64,000 nucleotides of DNA from a phage. Numbering within the stretch: the stretch's first letter is position 1; every line of letters starts with the position of its first letter. Of this stretch, positions 47,247 through 56,884 are shown piece by piece. The DNA lies in assembly GCA_014686985.1 (NCBI GenBank), contig GCA_014686985.1_3627.1; one strand, given 5' to 3'. The notes beneath the pieces are model-generated. The model did not search any database. It was not told the DNA's origin and was given only the letters and a program-made list of their open reading frames with translations. A program made the translations under genes and the position numbers.

Positions 47247-47597
47247 TCAGTAGATGTTTTGTTTAATCTCTATTCCAAACTTTTTAAACGAGTCAGCTGC
47301 AAGCATGAATTTACGAGCCGCTGATGGGTTAGAAGTATGCACGAAAATCTTCACGTTGTCAACTACAGGAGGCTTACCAAATACAAATTTTTCCTCCAAC
47401 ATAGATAGGCAATCGTACCCTTCGAATACCTCTCCAAGGTCGTTGTCCATATGCCACTCAGAAACGCGTCTGTAGAGCTTTCTATTATCGTTAATAAAAT
47501 CTATAAACTCGGAGGAATTCTTTAGCCAAACAGCGTCTTGGAGCCCGTACTTTGACGGATCTCTCAAGTCATCTAGCCACACAATCAACTTCTTCAT
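47247..47597 (-). CDS. hypothetical protein (116 aa), weak receiver-domain-like pattern
   Basis: acidic pair LDDLRD, later MDNDLG, VHTSNP and a distal Lys in CheY-like order; speculative. Confidence 0.45.
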   Translation of the reverse strand: MKKLIVWLDDLRDPSKYGLQDAVWLKNSSEFIDFINDNRKLYRRVSEWHMDNDLGEVFEGYDCLSMLEEKFVFGKPPVVDNVKIFVHTSNPSAARKFMLAADSFKKFGIEIKQNIY

Positions 47598-48529
47598 TGC
47601 ATATAGTTCTCGTTGTGGAAATAGTAATCGAGTATCTCACGGCGTTCCTGCTCCAGGAGGCAGTTCCACACATCCTCTGTGTAATTGCTACGAATGAAGT
47701 TTACCATGCCGTAAAACTCTTCGTCAACACGTTTAAAGATATCATCATCCCAAATCTTCCAAGCTTTACCCCTCATTACGGCCTTCCGTGCCAGATAGTA
47801 TGGAGACTTGATCTTCAGCTGCAGATCATAAGGGTAGTAAGGCTTACGAATCATATACCCTTCGCCCCTTGTTTCTGCAGCTAATTCTTTTGCATAGCTG
47901 AACGGGATTTCACGCACAGTGTGAGGACGTTTTGCACCAAGGTATTTGGCAATCCCATCTAAAGCTGCTTCTGGTAGCATTATTCCAGAATCATTATATC
48001 TGCAACCTATCAAATATGCGCCATGGTCTTCTTGAACAATATGCGGATCTGAAGGGTGACAAATTTCAAACATGAATGTCATGTTTTCATTGCCCATAAC
48101 CTTCTTGATAAGATCTAAATTACCACATTGCTCTTGGATGGTTTCCTTTGCAAGGTTACAATATGGAGAATCAAGAGACCCGGTTGTTGAGAACAATAGT
48201 TCACCTTTATGAGATGATACCACACCGAGGAATCCGTTCTTTTTCTCTACCGCAGTAACAAGTTTACTGTCCGGTAGGTTGGTGGAGTTTTCTCCCAAGT
48301 TAAACACTTTTGTGAAGGGCCATGCCACAACATTCCCTTCATTACCGACAACAATGCCTCGGCACTCCAGCAAACGAGGAGACAAATGCCATAAATTGTT
48401 GTAAAATACTTTTCTGGCATATTTATAGATCTTTAATCCAAGATCTGGGTAATATCTGCTGGTTACAAGACCTTTGTCAACTAGGTCGTCTGCATTAAAA
48501 TACTTCATCATGCGTTCCTCATTTGTCAT
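47594..48529 (-). CDS. RNA ligase-like nucleotidyltransferase
   Basis: motif I EKKNGFLG (Lys nucleophile), motif IV EGYMIRK, motif V LKIKSP; a separate DNA ligase exists at 43839-45122. Confidence 0.55.
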   Translation of the reverse strand: MTNEERMMKYFNADDLVDKGLVTSRYYPDLGLKIYKYARKVFYNNLWHLSPRLLECRGIVVGNEGNVVAWPFTKVFNLGENSTNLPDSKLVTAVEKKNGFLGVVSSHKGELLFSTTGSLDSPYCNLAKETIQEQCGNLDLIKKVMGNENMTFMFEICHPSDPHIVQEDHGAYLIGCRYNDSGIMLPEAALDGIAKYLGAKRPHTVREIPFSYAKELAAETRGEGYMIRKPYYPYDLQLKIKSPYYLARKAVMRGKAWKIWDDDIFKRVDEEFYGMVNFIRSNYTEDVWNCLLEQERREILDYYFHNENYMQ

Positions 48530-48573
48530 TTTGTCAGTCTATCCTGCCACACAAATAACCTGGTGTCAACACT

Positions 48574-48601
48574 TGAAATTAACAAAACAGTTGGGTATAC
48601 T
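48574..48601 (+). promoter_or_regulatory. sigma70-like promoter
   Basis: TTGAAA 48574-48579, 16-nt spacer, TATACT 48596-48601. Confidence 0.5.
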
Positions 48602-48629
48602 ATCGTTGAAATTAAAACGGAGGATTACT

Positions 48630-49040
48630 ATGTCTAAAATGCTATATATCGTGCGTGGTCTACCAGGGTCTGGCAAATCAACACTGGCAAATGCGCTATC
48701 TTTAGAAGGTCTGTATCCACATTTTGAGAACGACATGTTCTGGTACGACGATGATGGAAATTATAACTGGGATGCAAGTAAAGTAACACTTGCAGCAAAA
48801 TGGTGCAAAGATAACGTAGAAGATATGATGCGTATGGGATACGACCGTATCGTGGTAAGTAATACGTTTACAAAAGAAAAATATGTGCAAGAATATATTG
48901 ACATGGCGATCAGTCATGGGTATAGTTATACCGTGATCGTGGTTGAAAACCGCCATGGTAATAAAAGCATTCATGATGTTCCAGACAGGGTTGTGGATCG
49001 TATGGAACGCCAGCTTAAAAACTGCATTAAACTTAAATGA
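48630..49040 (+). CDS. P-loop kinase (polynucleotide kinase-like)
   Basis: ATG 48630 after GGAGG RBS; Walker A GLPGSGKST; 136 aa. Confidence 0.6.
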   Translation: MSKMLYIVRGLPGSGKSTLANALSLEGLYPHFENDMFWYDDDGNYNWDASKVTLAAKWCKDNVEDMMRMGYDRIVVSNTFTKEKYVQEYIDMAISHGYSYTVIVVENRHGNKSIHDVPDRVVDRMERQLKNCIKLK

Positions 49041-49047
49041 GGAATGT

Positions 49048-49602
49048 ATGAAATACTTTGTAACAAGCGACACACACTTTCTCCACCAGCGGGTCATGGA
49101 GTTCGATTCCTGTCAAAAACACAGATCTCAGTATGATCACAATCTTGACAGTATGAATGCGGGAATCATCACCAAGTGGAACTCTGTTGTGTCACCTGCA
49201 GACACTGTGTTTCACTTGGGAGATATTGCGTGCACTAATGATAAGAATATCAACAAATTGCTCCCAGATGTTCTAAATATGTTGAACGGACATATTATTC
49301 TTGTTCGTGGTAACCATGACACAAGGACGACTGTCAGAATTATGAAAGAGTTCGGTCATGAGGTTGTAGATTATTACGAGCTTCGCCACAACAAGAATTT
49401 GATCTGTATGAGCCATTACCAGTTTGCAAAGTGGAACAGAAAGCCTCACGGATCAGTCCAACTGTTCGGTCATGCTCACGGAACCACACAGCAGTTGTTT
49501 GGCAGGCAGTTTGATGTCGGTTGGGATGTGTGGGTGAGACTCTTACCATTAGAAGAGGCATACCGTATTGCAATGAGTCTTGCTATTGACAGCGGGGAGT
49601 AA
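49048..49602 (+). CDS. calcineurin-like metallophosphoesterase
   Basis: ATG 49048 after GAGG; motifs SDTHF (DxH), GDIACT (GDxx), GNHD. Confidence 0.7.
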   Translation: MKYFVTSDTHFLHQRVMEFDSCQKHRSQYDHNLDSMNAGIITKWNSVVSPADTVFHLGDIACTNDKNINKLLPDVLNMLNGHIILVRGNHDTRTTVRIMKEFGHEVVDYYELRHNKNLICMSHYQFAKWNRKPHGSVQLFGHAHGTTQQLFGRQFDVGWDVWVRLLPLEEAYRIAMSLAIDSGE

Positions 49603-52537: not shown

Positions 52538-52612
52538 GCCCTGTTAGCTTAGTGGATAAAGCAGCGGCCTTCTAAGCCGTTGACACTGGTTCGAGTCCAG
52601 TACGGGGTGCCA
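52538..52612 (+). tRNA. tRNA-Arg(UCU): tRNA-Arg (anticodon UCU)
   Basis: hand-folded cloverleaf: acceptor GCCCTGT/ACGGGGT, D-arm GCTT...AAGC, anticodon loop CTTCTAA, T-arm ACTGG-TTCGAGT-CCAGT, CCA encoded. Confidence 0.8.
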
Positions 52613-52616
52613 AATT

Positions 52617-52703
52617 GGGGAGTTATCCCGTAGAGGTAGCGGTGTAGACTGTAAATCTATTGTCATTGCGACTCGGGTGGTTCGACTCCACCACTCCCCA
52701 CCA
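52617..52703 (+). tRNA. tRNA-Tyr(GUA): tRNA-Tyr (anticodon GUA), class II
   Basis: acceptor GGGGAGT/ACTCCCC, anticodon loop CTGTAAA, long variable arm, T-arm GGTGG-TTCGACT-CCACC, CCA encoded. Confidence 0.75.
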
Positions 52704-52817
52704 AATTTATATTTTTAGATGCATAAATAATACAGATAATGGCATTGATATTTATCGTCGTTTATACTAGTCACTAACTGCTCGAAAATCAGTGTCATTA
52801 TCAGTATAATTTATAAA

Positions 52818-52908
52818 GGAGGGTAGGGAGCAATGGTGCTCAAGCGGTCTTGAAAACCGTCCCGTTGAGGATGACTCGATGATGGTTCGATTCCATTACT
52901 CTCCGCCA
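52818..52908 (+). tRNA. tRNA-Ser(UGA): tRNA-Ser (anticodon UGA), class II
   Basis: acceptor GGAGGGT/ACTCTCC, anticodon stem GCGGT/ACCGT with loop CTTGAAA, long variable arm, T-loop TTCGATT, CCA encoded. Confidence 0.7.
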
Positions 52909-53006
52909 CATTGTTGACCTTGTAATTAAGCGAAAGCCGGAAGCAGAACCGGATTATCAAATGTTACAGTCGTCATCGCCGACTAGCAACATGGTCAACA
53001 TACTGA

Positions 53007-53105
53007 GCTAGGTAAGCCCTTTGGCAAGGGCGAGGATTTTTAATCCTGAAAATAGACGAGGTAGTCGTTGAATACATAGGTGGTTCGATTCCATCGCCTA
53101 GCACC
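53007..53105 (+). tRNA. atypical tRNA-like element (99 nt; anticodon arm irregular, about 30-nt variable region)
   Basis: intact acceptor GCTAGGT/GCCTAGC, D-arm GCCC...GGGC and T-arm GGTGG-TTCGATT-CCATC; AGGA-TTTTTAA-TCCT arm would give anticodon UUU (Lys) but with a mismatch and an over-long variable region. Confidence 0.45.
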
Positions 53106-53110
53106 TTTTT

Positions 53111-53186
53111 GCTGATGTAGCACAATCGGTAGTGCAATTGATTTGTAATCAATAGGTTGTAGGTTCAAGTCCTGCCATCAGCACCA
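53111..53186 (+). tRNA. tRNA-Thr(UGU): tRNA-Thr (anticodon UGU)
   Basis: acceptor GCTGATG/CATCAGC, D-arm GCAC...GTGC, anticodon stem ATTGA/TCAAT with loop TTTGTAA, T-loop TTCAAGT, CCA encoded. Confidence 0.8.
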
Positions 53187-53187
53187 A

Positions 53188-53263
53188 GGCCCTGTAGCTG
53201 GAAGGTTCAAGCAAGCGACTCATAATCGCCAGACGGTGGTTCAATTCCACCCAGGGCCACCAA
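53188..53263 (+). tRNA. tRNA-Met/Ile2(CAU): tRNA with anticodon CAU (Met or lysidine-modified Ile2)
   Basis: acceptor GGCCCTG/CAGGGCC, anticodon loop CTCATAA, T-arm GGTGG-TTCAATT-CCACC, CCA encoded. Confidence 0.75.
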
Positions 53264-53273
53264 ATAGTAAATA

Positions 53274-53350
53274 CTCCGCGTAGCTCAGCTTGGTAGAGCG
53301 CCTGATTTGGGATCAGGAGGTCGAGTGTTCGAATCACTCCGTGGAGACCA
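53274..53350 (+). tRNA. tRNA-Pro(UGG): tRNA-Pro (anticodon UGG)
   Basis: acceptor CTCCGCG/CGTGGAG, D-arm GCTC...GAGC, anticodon stem CCTGA/TCAGG with loop TTTGGGA, T-arm GAGTG-TTCGAAT-CACTC, CCA encoded. Confidence 0.8.
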
Positions 53351-54454: not shown

Positions 54455-54879
54455 TGTCTAAGATTTACGGACCGTGTTCTGAAAAGCAGAAGATGATCCT
54501 CGAAAACGATGCAGATATCTTGGTAATCGGCGGTGCAGCAGGGTCTGGCAAGTCGTTCCTCTTGCAGTTGATGCCACTTAAAATTATTGATGACCCCCAC
54601 AGCTCTGTGGTTATGTTCCGAAGAACAACCCCACAGTTGGAAGGTGAGGGTGGACTATGGCCTAAAGCAGTAGCTATTTATAGTGATCTGCCTGAAAACA
54701 TTAAGCCAAAGTTCAGAGAGAAGGATCATAAGTTCATTTTTCCACGGTTTGATCCGAACACTGGTAAGTGGGATAGAAGCAAAAAGGGAGCTGTTGTAAA
54801 ATACTGCCATATGGAGTATGTACAAGATAAGCTTAACCATCAGGGGCTTGAGTACACCATGGTTTGCTTCGACGAGGGT
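54454..54879 (+). CDS. terL: terminase large subunit, exon 1 (ATPase N-terminus)
   Basis: Walker A GGAAGSGKS, Walker B MVCFDE; reading frame ends at ...FDEG immediately before the proposed 5' splice site. Confidence 0.7.
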
Positions 54880-55762
54880 TAATTTGTAGCTCTCGTAAAA
54901 CCTCCCTAATTGCGGGGAAATCTTTATTATTGACACCACCAACCTGTTATGGTAACATAATAGAGGCTTCGAAGAGAGATCGAAGGTATGGTAACAGTGT
55001 GTTAATTTAGATAATCCGCAGCGAAGCATCCGAGAGGATGAACGTTCAACGACTAGTCGAAAGACGTAGAATCAAGCGATTCGAAACGGGAGGGTGAATG
55101 TGTAATACTAAAAAATGTATGGATTGCCAAAGAGTTCTGCCCATTGATGATTTCTTTTTATCATCTAAGAGCAAGGATGGATACTCAGGTACATGCAAGG
55201 AATGCTATATGTACTACAGGAAGGGTGGATCTCGTAAAAACAAAAATATGGTTAAGAGAGATGACGCAGCATTGTTTATTCAAGACTTGCTGAAGAAAGG
55301 TGAACTTTTTGAATGCAAATCTTGTCATGAAAGTATGCTCGCTGATAGTTTTTACACAAAACGTGACTATGGTAAAGTATATCTGGTTACGAACAGGTGT
55401 AAGATGTGTGAAAAGTTTTATCAGATTGAGAAGAAATTTCACATAACAAAAGATGAATACTATCGTCTACTCTCAGATCAAGATCATAAGTGTGCCATTT
55501 GTAGAATATCTCTTAATGAGTATAGGACGCAAGGGTACAGAGATTTCTTTTGTGTTGATCATGACCATAAAACTGGTGCTGTAAGAGGGTTGCTTTGTGA
55601 TAAATGCAACAGAGCTTTAGGTTTCTTCCAAGAAGATGAGGAAACTATTCTTAGAGCGGCAGAGTATTTACACATTCATAAGATATAGTCTGGTCTGCAT
55701 GGAGACATGCAGCTGCCTGAAAATGGCGGGGCAAGACTAGCGACCTTGCCCGAACATAAACG
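54880..55762 (+). mobile_element. candidate group I intron interrupting terL (carries an HNH homing endonuclease ORF)
   Basis: exon end CGAGGGU can pair with intron GCUCUCG (54889-54895) giving a P1 helix with U-G at the splice site; intron ends in G at 55762; 3' part contains AGACUA and the 5' part contains the complementary UAGUC (P7-like). Confidence 0.6.
55098..55688 (+). CDS. HNH homing endonuclease (Endo VII-type fold)
   Basis: CAICRISL...FCVDHDHKTGAVRGLLCDKCNRALG; RBS GGGAGGG; located inside the terL intron. Confidence 0.75.
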   Translation: MCNTKKCMDCQRVLPIDDFFLSSKSKDGYSGTCKECYMYYRKGGSRKNKNMVKRDDAALFIQDLLKKGELFECKSCHESMLADSFYTKRDYGKVYLVTNRCKMCEKFYQIEKKFHITKDEYYRLLSDQDHKCAICRISLNEYRTQGYRDFFCVDHDHKTGAVRGLLCDKCNRALGFFQEDEETILRAAEYLHIHKI

Positions 55763-56884
55763 ACACAATTCGAATGGGAGCAGATAGACTATCTGATGTC
55801 TCGTCTGCGATCTCAGTCAAAGTATCCATCAAGAATGGTTATCAGCTGTAACCCCGATTCAGAACACATGCTTGCCAAACTGGTTAGATGGTGGTTGGAC
55901 GATGAAGGGTATCCAGATCCGGAGAAATGCGGTAAGAAAAGATATTTTATCCGACGCGACGGTGAATTTATATGGGGAGACTCTAAAGAAGAGTTGATAG
56001 AGAAATACACCACGGTTAACGGACTGGGTGTGGAGATCAAGCCAAGACCGTTGTCATTCTCGTTTATAGGCGCAACAATATTCGATAATCCTGTCTGCTT
56101 AAGAGACAACCCAGAATACCTTGCTTTCCTTGAAGGTCTGCCGGAACTGGAAAAAGCTCAGCTTCTTCATGGTAACTGGTTTGCAAAGCCTGAGGGTGCA
56201 AACTATTTTCAAAGATCTTTCCTTCGTGATGCCGATAGAGTACCTCTTGGATCAGTATCTTGCAGGGCATGGGATAAGGCAGGAACCGAGAGAACTTCCG
56301 GTAATAAATTTCCTGACTTTACCGCCAGTATTAAGGTAAGTAAAGATAGCGACGGCTTTTATTACCTGTCCGGTGATTATTGTCCTGAGAACGTGGATGA
56401 AGGGAGGTATTCCACAGGTCTGGAAGGCAAGTTCTGTAAAAAGGCTGGTGAACGAGATGTGATCATCAGGAAACAGGCGCAGTTTGATGGTGATGATTGC
56501 ATAATCGTCTTCTCTGTGGACCCAGGGCAGGCAGGTAAGAGTGAGTTCTTAACCTCCTCCAGATCCTTGCTTGCCGAAGGGTTCAGGGTTGAAGAAGACC
56601 CAATGCCTTCCAACAAGTCTAAACTGACAAGGTTCTCACCTTTTGCCAATCTTGCCCAACAAGGAATGGTGAGGATTGTAAAATCCAGTTTCCATCCTGA
56701 TACTCTGGAAGCATTTCTGACTGAACTTGAAAAATTCAACGGGGAAAGATCAACATTTAACAGAAAAGACGACTGGGCCGACTGCGTAGCTTCTGCGATT
56801 AATTTCCTAGAGAAAGAGGAGGTAGCACTTCCTTGTGTGATTCCATCAATCTCATCACCTTCTATGTTCAAGCGTTTTATCTAA
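55763..56884 (+). CDS. terL: terminase large subunit, exon 2 (coupling motif and nuclease domain)
   Basis: in-frame continuation TQFEWEQIDYLMSRLRSQSK...MVISCNP aligns with T4 gp17 region following Walker B; LLHGNW later. Confidence 0.65.
   Translation, partial: TQFEWEQIDYLMSRLRSQSKYPSRMVISCNPDSEHMLAKLVRWWLDDEGYPDPEKCGKKRYFIRRDGEFIWGDSKEELIEKYTTVNGLGVEIKPRPLSFSFIGATIFDNPVCLRDNPEYLAFLEGLPELEKAQLLHGNWFAKPEGANYFQRSFLRDADRVPLGSVSCRAWDKAGTERTSGNKFPDFTASIKVSKDSDGFYYLSGDYCPENVDEGRYSTGLEGKFCKKAGERDVIIRKQAQFDGDDCIIVFSVDPGQAGKSEFLTSSRSLLAEGFRVEEDPMPSNKSKLTRFSPFANLAQQGMVRIVKSSFHPDTLEAFLTELEKFNGERSTFNRKDDWADCVASAINFLEKEEVALPCVIPSISSPSMFKRFI

Follow-up and report, generated by a model that had tools for sequence, protein, structure and literature searches.

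Does a phage of Escherichia coli encode its own split pathway for the healing and sealing of broken RNA? The question is raised by three adjoining genes in a 64,000-nucleotide stretch of phage DNA (the window), in which a first-pass annotation had seen an RNA ligase, a P-loop kinase and a calcineurin-type metallophosphoesterase and had proposed that together they counteract tRNA-cleaving toxins. tRNA repair by Pnkp and Rnl1 of phage T4 counters the anticodon nuclease PrrC, and tRNA-cleaving defence systems are now seen as widespread. To our knowledge, T4 Pnkp/Rnl1 is the only phage RNA repair pathway that is supported by experiments, and no experimental work on the trio of genes in rV5 was found in the literature. 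The window derives from an rV5-like Vequintavirus, a phage of E. coli, and is ~98% identical to >100 sequenced phages. The 5.6-kb region with the RNA repair module is 90-98% identical across 123 phage records and, therefore, the ligase, the kinase and the phosphoesterase are real, conserved genes. Existing GenBank records of rV5-like relatives already label them as RNA ligase, polynucleotide kinase and phosphoesterase. The trio and the region between its two arms are:

47594..48529, minus strand: predicted Rnl1-family ATP-dependent RNA ligase, 311-aa open reading frame (Pfam, profile, hhalign, invariant motifs)
48530..48629, no strand: divergent intergenic region with a sigma-70-like site and a Shine-Dalgarno sequence in front of the kinase start codon
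48630..49040, plus strand: stand-alone P-loop polynucleotide 5'-kinase-like protein, 136 aa (Pfam, PHROG, PDB profile)
49048..49602, plus strand: predicted binuclear metallophosphoesterase of the aq_1665-like clade, 184 aa (Pfam, invariant motifs, PDB profile)

All three open reading frames were found in the ORF listing where the first-pass annotation had placed them, and every motif that it had quoted was present in the translations: EKKNGFLG, EGYMIRK and LKIKSP in the ligase, GLPGSGKST in the kinase, and SDTHF (DxH), HLGD and GNHD in the phosphoesterase. The divergent layout was also as described, with 100 bp separating the ligase from the kinase/phosphoesterase pair. In front of the kinase lie a predicted sigma-70-like site, TTGAAA-17-TATACT (48573-48601, plus strand), and a GGAGGA Shine-Dalgarno sequence, both consensus matches only; the kinase ATG at 48630 sits within a longer TTG-start ORF, and the phosphoesterase begins with the ATG at 49048. 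An Rfam scan in and around the module gave no non-coding RNA except tRNAs.

A locus of this kind was described by Iyer, Burroughs, Anantharaman & Aravind (2022, Viruses 14:1977, section 3.7.3; PMC9503650) as "type 2" of the sirtuin-centred phage RNA-repair neighbourhoods, with Escherichia phage V5 and Proteus phage Mydo as prototypes and with genes for a sirtuin, a T4-like tRNA ligase, cREC, a nucleotide kinase, MazG and a calcineurin-like phosphoesterase. The window holds the same locus from the same phage group, and all six genes lie in 45750-49602. Since the neighbourhood was already published as a computational prediction in 2022 and its genes were already annotated, finding it again adds little. 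The points added by the present analysis are a conserved core formed by the trio, fusions that link the kinase with the ligase, and one residue that hints at 2'-phosphate recognition.

By profile and by predicted fold, the first of the three proteins is an Rnl1-family ligase. It matched PF09511 (RNA_lig_T4_1) with an E-value of 9e-15 and 55.5 bits (cut-off 28.3); all Pfam calls were made at the curated cut-offs, which ligase, kinase and phosphoesterase exceeded. The family profile of the ligase retrieved T4 Rnl1 (2c5u, E 7.8e-14) from the PDB, hhalign against T4 Rnl1 gave a probability of 97.8%, and the AF2 model had a pLDDT of 90. Single-sequence PDB searches with the ligase and the kinase returned nothing meaningful, the matches came from the family profiles. 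Motif I (K96-K-N-G99), motif III (E155), motif IV (E223-G224) and motif V (K239/K241) are invariant in 34 homologues and pair with K99, E159, E227-G228 and K240/K242 of T4 Rnl1 in both the profile and the hhalign alignments. The ORF is present as annotated, but its start is probably not: a GAGGA lies just upstream of Met7 (48511), GenBank relatives are annotated with 305 aa, and the model shows disorder for residues 1-7, so that translation probably begins at Met7. With 38 bits for TIGR02308 (cut-off 242), the protein is not a T4 RnlA equivalog. No sequence alignment extends beyond motif V, near residue 247, and no conservation of the C-terminal tRNA-specificity domain of T4 Rnl1 was detectable; instead of ~120 aa in T4 Rnl1, the C-terminal domain has ~65 aa folded into five helices. 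A further difference from T4 Rnl1 is His163 in place of Ile167. In the protein collection, ~1,700 homologues of the ligase were found, and the rV5-type trio was seen on several hundred viral contigs.

The second protein carries a P-loop (G10-x4-G15-K16-S-T), an invariant D35 and the lid segment ENRHGNKSIHDVP. It matched PF13671 (AAA_33, E 3e-10) and phrog_505, "polynucleotide kinase". The best full-length matches of its family profile in the PDB were T4 Pnk (7e-8), the Mucorales RNA 5'-OH kinase 9d8a, Pnkp1, PSTK, CthPnk and mammalian PNKP, whereas the match to adenylate, gluconate and shikimate kinases was confined to the P-loop. Judged from these profiles, the nearest characterised relatives of the protein are polynucleotide kinases and not nucleoside or nucleotide kinases. 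G10, G15, K16 and D35 do not vary among 36 homologues, and D35 pairs with the catalytic Asp35 of T4 Pnk. The HAD 3'-phosphatase domain that is fused to the kinase in T4 Pnkp is absent from this 136-aa stand-alone protein.

The third protein exceeded the cut-offs of PF12850 (Metallophos_2) and PF00149 (Metallophos) only marginally, yet it has all five binuclear-metal motifs (DxH, GD, GNH[DE], H and GHxH) with D8, H10, D59, N89, H90, H123, H142 and H144 invariant. Its profile matched 1xm7 in the PDB with an E-value of 7e-23; the protein belongs to the aq_1665-like clade, and a Pnkp-type phosphoesterase was looked for and rejected. The expected profile relationships were obtained for the ligase (to T4 Rnl1) and the kinase (to polynucleotide kinases), but not for the phosphoesterase to the Pnkp clade. 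CthPnkp and lambda phosphatase, binuclear enzymes of the same superfamily, cleave 2',3'-cyclic phosphates (PMC2190708), and the phage protein is a candidate 2',3'-cyclic phosphodiesterase/3'-phosphatase.

The linkage of the three genes was surveyed in 84 viral loci with a ligase homologue of 37-89% identity. A kinase was found at most 8 kb from the ligase in 74 of them and within 3 kb in 73, a phosphoesterase within 3 kb in 66, and both within 3 kb in 61. When the loci were de-replicated at 70% identity of the ligase, 36 remained, 28 of them with both. Their order is not fixed: MPE-LIG-KIN, KIN-LIG-MPE, LIG-KIN-MPE and KIN-MPE-LIG all occur. Furthermore, kinase and ligase are fused in 12 loci, and also in P0182 and P0267. 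Sir2 (12/84), cREC (11/84) and MazG (17/84) are much rarer neighbours. The conserved core, therefore, consists of kinase, metallophosphoesterase and ligase, and Sir2, cREC and MazG are lineage-specific add-ons. This is the reverse of the published type 2 description, in which the sirtuin is central and the phosphoesterase "occasional", while our survey is centred on the ligase.

Profile and fold matches, complete active sites, linkage over 84 loci and fusions together bear out the claim of a split kinase, metallophosphoesterase and RNA ligase system, and the trio is probably a split RNA heal-and-seal pathway of the rV5-like phage. On the strength of these comparisons, its most likely function is to heal and rejoin cut RNA such as tRNA. 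In this pathway, the small P-loop kinase would add a phosphate to the 5'-OH end, the binuclear metallophosphoesterase would open or remove the 2',3'-cyclic phosphate, with cREC as a possible helper at the cyclic-phosphate step in the window phage, and the Rnl1-family ligase would be adenylylated at Lys96, pass the AMP to the 5'-phosphate and seal the break. We infer the exact 3'-end chemistry as well as the division of labour among the trio, cREC, Sir2 and MazG. By analogy with T4, tRNA anticodon loops would be the substrates, or else other RNAs of translation, and the same analogy suggests a role in counter-defence. A HEPN retron that cuts tRNA and rRNA still protects E. coli from Vequintavirinae (bioRxiv 10.64898/2026.07.14.738597) and, therefore, any protection conferred by the trio is not general.

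The trio resembles the T4 system in the type of kinase (P-loop, catalytic Asp aligned) and in the logic of healing and sealing, and like T4 the window phage infects E. coli and carries tRNA genes. Unlike in T4, where a phosphatase of the HAD (DxDxT) type on the same polypeptide as the kinase heals the 3' end, the 3'-healing enzyme would be a separate binuclear metallophosphoesterase, and the short five-helix C-terminal domain of the ligase does not align to the tRNA-specificity domain. The tRNA genes form an array downstream of the phosphoesterase:

52538..53350, plus strand: seven-tRNA array, context (ARAGORN, Rfam, GenBank annotation)

It encodes Arg-UCU, Tyr-GUA, Ser-UGA, an unusual tRNA of 99 nt whose anticodon loop is of the Lys type, Thr-UGU, Met/Ile-CAU and Pro-UGG. 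The array indeed begins ~2.9 kb from the phosphoesterase stop, as the first-pass annotation had pointed out, but tRNA genes lie near only 26 of 60 related loci, and the link of the module to the array is only suggestive.

The parallel to Pnkp/Hen1 that had been drawn holds for the three chemistries: like Pnkp/Hen1 and the Pnkp1-Rnl-Hen1 systems of Clostridium thermocellum and Capnocytophaga, the phage combines a P-loop 5'-kinase, a binuclear metallophosphoesterase and an ATP-dependent ligase, and the kinase profile matches CthPnk and Pnkp1. It does not extend to the proteins: the phage enzymes are encoded by separate genes and do not form one polypeptide, the phosphoesterase falls outside the Pnkp clade, and the ligase differs from the Pnkp/Hen1 type. 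A Hen1 methyltransferase gene is not adjacent to the trio and, therefore, there is no sign of a 2'-O-methyl "immunisation" of the repaired junction. Bifunctional end-healing enzymes of the HD-Pnk type also exist, reportedly including Runella slithyformis HD-Pnk as described by Munir and Shuman in 2017. The same pairing of a kinase with a 2',3'-phosphoesterase is given by HD-fused homologues of the window kinase (P0143, P0173, P0239 and P0202), which are 42-46% identical to it and have the domains in either order; in contrast to HD-Pnk, the phosphoesterase of the window is of the calcineurin type and encoded by the next gene, neither HD nor fused.

Although the trio was recognised correctly by the first-pass annotation, the operon partners of the ligase were overlooked. 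The ligase is the first gene of a leftward four-gene unit, ligase-cREC-Sir2-MazG-like, with a 4-nt overlap followed by gaps of 8 and 13 nt:

47247..47597, minus strand: cREC (cyclic-phosphate-processing receiver-like) protein, 116 aa, its start overlapping the ligase stop by 4 nt
46477..47238, minus strand: atypical Sir2, 253 aa (Pfam SIR2, E 3e-27; phrog_2162, E 9e-110)
45750..46463, minus strand: MazG-like nucleotide pyrophosphohydrolase, 237 aa, final gene of the leftward unit (phrog_671, E 5e-22)
45726..45743, minus strand: GC-rich, terminator-like hairpin directly after the MazG-like stop, with a weak T-tract

The cREC protein matched PF20274 (cREC_REC) with an E-value of 4.5e-15 and 56.5 bits (cut-off 27); its predicted role is taken from PMC7824862 and PMC9503650. 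Sir2 carries the GAGxS, TTNVDD and HG motifs and lacks the zinc-ribbon cysteines (Cys at 38, 177 and 192 only). A Pfam scan gave no match for the MazG-like protein, which RefSeq labels as nucleotide pyrophosphohydrolase. The hairpin may mark the end of the unit, although terminator-like sites are no commoner here than in shuffled sequence. NAD-salvage genes like those adjoining the module in Erwinia phage Hena1 were not found within the 64-kb window.

The operon partners bear on a yeast-type 2'-phosphate route, as Iyer et al. (2022) suggested for the V5 neighbourhood when they proposed a KptA-like role for Sir2 (PMC9503650). In this route, cREC and/or the metallophosphoesterase would open the cyclic phosphate to a 3'-OH and 2'-PO4 end, the kinase would phosphorylate the 5' end, and the ligase would need the 2'-PO4 and keep it at the junction; Sir2 would then strip it with NAD+ as Tpt1/KptA does, and MazG and cREC would clear the ADP-ribose by-products. 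The tight operon argues for it; as a likeness to the fungal/plant Trl1 (LIG-KIN-CPD) plus Tpt1 system, the operon encodes an enzyme that uses NAD, Sir2, and cREC, which is predicted to be a cyclic phosphodiesterase independent of metals. A CthPnkp mutant gives 2'-NMP only, so metallophosphoesterases are able to produce 2'-phosphates. In CthLIG, the terminal 2'-PO4 is bound by a triad of H227, R334 and R337 (PMC11404444). His163 of the phage ligase is invariant and pairs with H227 by hhalign, so that the motif-III-proximal histidine of the triad is common to both; moreover, the invariant K249 and R253 follow motif V at roughly the spacing of Arg334/Arg337, and the fold is equally close to Trl1-LIG and T4 Rnl1. 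However, the sequence is much nearer to T4 Rnl1 (E 9e-13) than to Trl1 (E 3.6e-5), and neither triad arginine aligns significantly (C-terminal-only hhalign of Arg334/Arg337 against the phage ligase, probability 3.6%). His163 is invariant even though so few of the 84 loci have Sir2 or cREC. A Tpt1/KptA homologue was not found near the ligase in the 84 loci or the window by a single-sequence query of limited sensitivity, none of the scanned ligase neighbours has a 2H domain, and the three activities are not fused as they are in Trl1; Sir2 and cREC are no more than proposed counterparts of Tpt1 and the 2H CPDase. We know of no sirtuin that dephosphorylates RNA, which also counts against this route. 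Altogether, the route is unlikely, and it is equally doubtful that rV5-type ligases are the viral counterpart of fungal and plant tRNA ligases, requiring a 2'-phosphate that they would recognise through the invariant His163 together with K249/R253 and leave at the junction, with the zinc-less Sir2 taking it off by means of NAD+ in Vequintaviruses. If this is true, Sir2 would be the first sirtuin with RNA 2'-phosphotransferase activity, bacterial viruses would have their first example of tRNA ligation by a yeast-type pathway, and phages without Sir2 would depend on host KptA.

A DNA-directed reading starts from a gene to the left of the operon:

43839..45122, minus strand: ATP-dependent DNA ligase, context gene (Pfam DNA_ligase_A_M, DNA_ligase_OB_2)

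Kinase and phosphoesterase could clean 5'-OH and 3'-phosphate DNA ends, e.g. from host nucleases, for this neighbour, with the RNA ligase acting separately. In 45 of the 84 loci, a DNA ligase is found no more than 8 kb from the RNA ligase (within 3 kb in 38), so the healing enzymes might also process DNA ends; the kinase profile matches T4 Pnk and mammalian PNKP, which work on DNA, and there is a weak NCBIfam match to PdeM. However, in the loci examined the kinase is fused with RNA ligase and never with DNA ligase, and kinase and phosphoesterase adjoin the RNA ligase at tens of bases, whereas the DNA ligase is 1-4 kb off on varying sides, which makes DNA end processing improbable.

Still less probable is a clearance of signals, in which the phosphoesterase, cREC, Sir2 and MazG break down nucleotides of host immunity or signals derived from NAD, the substrates of the kinase are nucleotides, and the ligase is there by coincidence. 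Calcineurin-like, cREC and Sir2 domains have been treated as enzymes of phage nucleotide/NAD networks (PMC7824862, PMC9503650), and the nearest solved homologue of the phosphoesterase has no known substrate; against this, the linkage of kinase and phosphoesterase to the RNA ligase survives permutation of gene order and includes fusions, and the kinase profile covers polynucleotide kinases over their full length. A catalytic role of the ligase in the attachment of tail fibres, for which transferred annotations in many GenBank records and the phrog_562 name are the sole support, is hardly credible and was rejected as a name carried over from T4 gp63, because the likeness to T4 gp63/Rnl1 is limited to the nucleotidyltransferase domain, the gene heads an early-type block among nucleic-acid enzymes away from the tail genes, and its constant partners are kinase and phosphoesterase.

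In sum, the rV5-type trio, probably a split RNA heal-and-seal pathway, is common, and its 3'-end healing enzyme differs from that of T4. Easily handled coliphage relatives exist (BASEL Bas48-52). At stake are RNA repair as a general counter-defence of phages and the question of which nucleases such repair beats.

The first-pass annotation had described a divergent trio with the ligase gene directed leftward and the kinase and phosphoesterase genes rightward, and indeed three open reading frames were found in this arrangement, with all motifs quoted in it present in the translations. Overlooked in it were further members of a tightly packed leftward unit of which the ligase gene is the first:

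47594-48529, minus strand, RNA ligase
48630-49040, plus strand, kinase
49048-49602, plus strand, metallophosphoesterase
start overlapping the ligase stop by 4 nt, minus strand, cREC (PF20274, E 4.5e-15)
46477-47238, minus strand, 8-nt gap after cREC, Sir2 (PF02146, E 3e-27)
13-nt gap after Sir2, minus strand, MazG-like pyrophosphohydrolase (phrog_671)

A GC-rich hairpin comes after the MazG-like gene, and beyond it, leftward, lie two small ORFs, an ATP-dependent DNA ligase and an endolysin. Kinase and phosphoesterase genes are spaced by 7 nt. The trio lies where the genome's two large transcription blocks diverge, with a 100-bp intergenic region between the two directions, in which the kinase is preceded by a sigma-70-like site and a Shine-Dalgarno sequence. 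The first ATG of the ligase gene is at 48529 and an alternative start, Met7, at 48511, with a GAGGA Shine-Dalgarno sequence ahead of Met7/Met8. In GenBank relatives the ligase is given as 305 aa, residues 1-7 are disordered in the structural model, and the true start is probably Met7 (48511), not 48529.

The 5.6 kb around the trio matched 123 phage records, with 97-98% identity to rV5-group Vequintaviruses of E. coli such as rV5_ev147, slur16, APECc02 and the BASEL phage RudolfGeigy/Bas52. In these records the ligase is named "RNA ligase" or "RNA ligase and tail attachment protein", the kinase "polynucleotide kinase", "3'-phosphatase, 5'-polynucleotide kinase" or "ATPase", and the phosphoesterase "phosphoesterase". 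Eighteen records are titled 'Campylobacter phage' with host C. jejuni (e.g. MG065655.1, MG065646.1, MG065647.1) and are ~97% identical to the E. coli Vequintaviruses across the whole query; their host assignment looks doubtful. In slur16 the terminase large subunit (locus L086 28761-30627; window ~54460-56326) is annotated as two CDSs ~420 bp apart; Rfam gave no intron model at this gap, which may reflect an insertion, a frameshift or an intervening sequence that has escaped recognition. Exactly this neighbourhood was described by Iyer, Burroughs, Anantharaman and Aravind in 2022 (PMC9503650, section 3.7.3), who proposed that the sirtuin is KptA-like and takes off 2'-phosphates; an earlier jumbo-phage paper of the same group (PMC7824862) gives the general logic as an ATP-grasp RNA ligase with a polynucleotide kinase and phosphoesterases. 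The trio and its heal-and-seal interpretation were both in the public record beforehand and novelty is low; a literature search found no experimental work on the rV5-type trio genes.

The ligase matched RNA_lig_T4_1 in Pfam (E 9e-15) and had 1,682 homologues in the protein collection, nearly all of ~300 aa. A profile of 34 sequences found T4 Rnl1 as the best solved relative (E 7.8e-14); hhalign aligned residues 30-247 with T4 Rnl1 (probability 97.8%) and gave a probability of 71% (E 3.6e-5) for the fungal Trl1 ligase domain. The AlphaFold model was confident (pLDDT 90). Because of these profile, hhalign and model results, the protein is assigned, as a prediction from sequence, to the Rnl1/Trl1 supergroup of RNA ligases and not to the Pnkp/Hen1 type that had been invoked. 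A DNA ligase was rejected on the same profile and hhalign matches, and an equivalog of T4 RnlA because TIGR02308 scored 38 bits against a cut-off of 242. Unlike T4 Rnl1 with its tRNA-specificity domain, the phage ligase has a short helical C-terminal domain that could not be aligned to it. Furthermore, the invariant His163 (in FEICxPSDPHIV), an isoleucine in T4 Rnl1, aligns with Trl1 His227, which with two arginines (334, 337) forms the 2'-PO4 triad; beyond motif V, the invariant K249 and R253 stand at about the spacing of these arginines, in a region whose alignment is non-significant.

The kinase matched AAA_33 (E 3e-10). Its 36-sequence profile matched T4 polynucleotide kinase, the Mucorales tRNA-splicing RNA 5'-OH kinase, Pnkp1, PSTK, C. 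thermocellum Pnk and mammalian PNKP over the full length; matches to nucleoside and nucleotide kinases were confined to the P-loop. G10, G15, K16 and D35 are invariant, D35 aligning with the catalytic aspartate of T4 Pnk. A search of 1.84 billion representatives revealed homologues (42-47% identity) fused in both orders to Rnl1-family ligases (P0182, P0267) and to HD phosphohydrolases (P0143, P0173, P0239, P0202), the latter being the known HD-Pnk end-healing architecture. The phosphoesterase matched Metallophos_2 and Metallophos marginally above cut-off.

Six-frame ORFs of 84 loci (80 fetched viral loci with ligase homologues of 37-89% identity and four from assemblies) were searched with iterated HMMs from the window proteins. 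Within 8 kb of the ligase, the kinase was found in 74 loci, the phosphoesterase in 66, the DNA ligase in 45, the MazG-like protein in 17, Sir2 in 12 and cREC in 11; kinase and phosphoesterase both lay within 3 kb in 61/84. De-replicated at 70% identity of the ligase, the set shrank to 36 loci, with the kinase (30), the phosphoesterase (32) or both (28) within 3 kb, and Sir2 in five and cREC in four. Gene orders were MPE-LIG-KIN, KIN-LIG-MPE, LIG-KIN-MPE and KIN-MPE-LIG (MPE, phosphoesterase), and in 12 loci the kinase was fused to the ligase N-terminus (431-433 aa; Pfam-confirmed). Since the linkage outlasts rearrangement and includes fusions, it argues strongly for joint action of the three proteins. 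The survey shows the trio to be the conserved core, to which Sir2, cREC and MazG are additions within a ~145-kb Vequintavirinae-like lineage. One 3.5-kb contig (L003, JAHXDU010000436.1) carries two identical ligase-kinase pairs inverted around a phosphoesterase fragment, probably an assembly artefact of a palindromic contig.

The best-supported reading, which we consider likely, is a T4-like heal-and-seal pathway whose 3'-end healing enzyme, the metallophosphoesterase, is non-orthologous to that of T4. The kinase would make the 5'-phosphate, the metallophosphoesterase, possibly with cREC, would remove the 2',3'-cyclic phosphate, and the Rnl1-type ligase would seal the break; enzyme families, active-site residues, linkage and fusions support this interpretation in silico. 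The main rival, a yeast-type 2'-phosphate route with Sir2 as Tpt1 analogue, is favoured by the operon structure of the ligase unit and by His163, but while His163 is invariant, Sir2 and cREC are only sporadic companions of the ligase, and Tpt1/KptA was near no ligase in the 84 loci searched, which makes this route unlikely; KptA is encoded by the host. Sir2 keeps its NAD-binding and catalytic His motifs but lacks the sirtuin zinc-ribbon module, since its only cysteines are at positions 38, 177 and 192 and none lies between the catalytic His and VVFFGE. In Erwinia phage Hena1 (L004 852-3595), the MPE-ligase-kinase-Sir2 genes are preceded, 2-5 kb upstream, by two NAD-salvage genes, one of the NAPRTase family and one for a ribose-phosphate pyrophosphokinase; tblastn found no counterpart in the window. 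DNA-end repair is still less probable, clearance of a nucleotide signal quite improbable, and tail-fibre attachment hardly credible.

Proximity to the tRNA array, taken before as a pointer to tRNA repair, is suggestive but not diagnostic: 26/60 related loci had at least one tRNA gene no more than 8 kb from the ligase, which exceeds what a randomly placed gene would show in a genome of 100-150 kb, but the loci share phylogenetic descent and many had none close by. An odd 99-nt tRNA gene (53007-53105, plus strand; also L006 270-367) was called 'tRNA-??? (atcc)' by ARAGORN, scored 29.4 bits in Rfam, just at threshold, and is entered as a 97-nt tRNA-Lys in the Bas52 record. Its anticodon stem-loop, GAGGA-UUUUUAA-UCCUG, gives the anticodon UUU (Lys), its D stem has 6 bp and its variable arm is long and class-II-like, and the whole folds as a cloverleaf with one additional arm (z = -3.4). 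PrrC and PARIS AriB both attack tRNA-Lys(UUU), so this aberrant tRNA with a Lys anticodon, lying beside the repair module, may serve as a decoy or as a resistant replacement. A few kb from the ligase, a tmRNA gene and tRNAs of the suppressor type (anticodons UUA, CUA) also turn up on phage contigs that encode the trio or the kinase-ligase fusion (L047 8665-9065, L055 14168-14570, L060 13208-13610, L066 11165-11237, L069 13588-13663, L072 12668-12740 and 16341-16663), which suggests that translation-rescue functions cluster more widely around the ligase, possibly in stop-codon-recoded phages.

Counter-defence had been proposed as the role of the module. Protection against Vequintavirinae is still conferred by a HEPN retron cleaving both tRNA and rRNA (bioRxiv 10.64898/2026.07.14.738597), so the module is no universal shield, whatever its repair target. 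In sum, the trio offers a clear, testable system in a tractable coliphage, with one specific lead, the possible recognition of a 2'-phosphate by the ligase.
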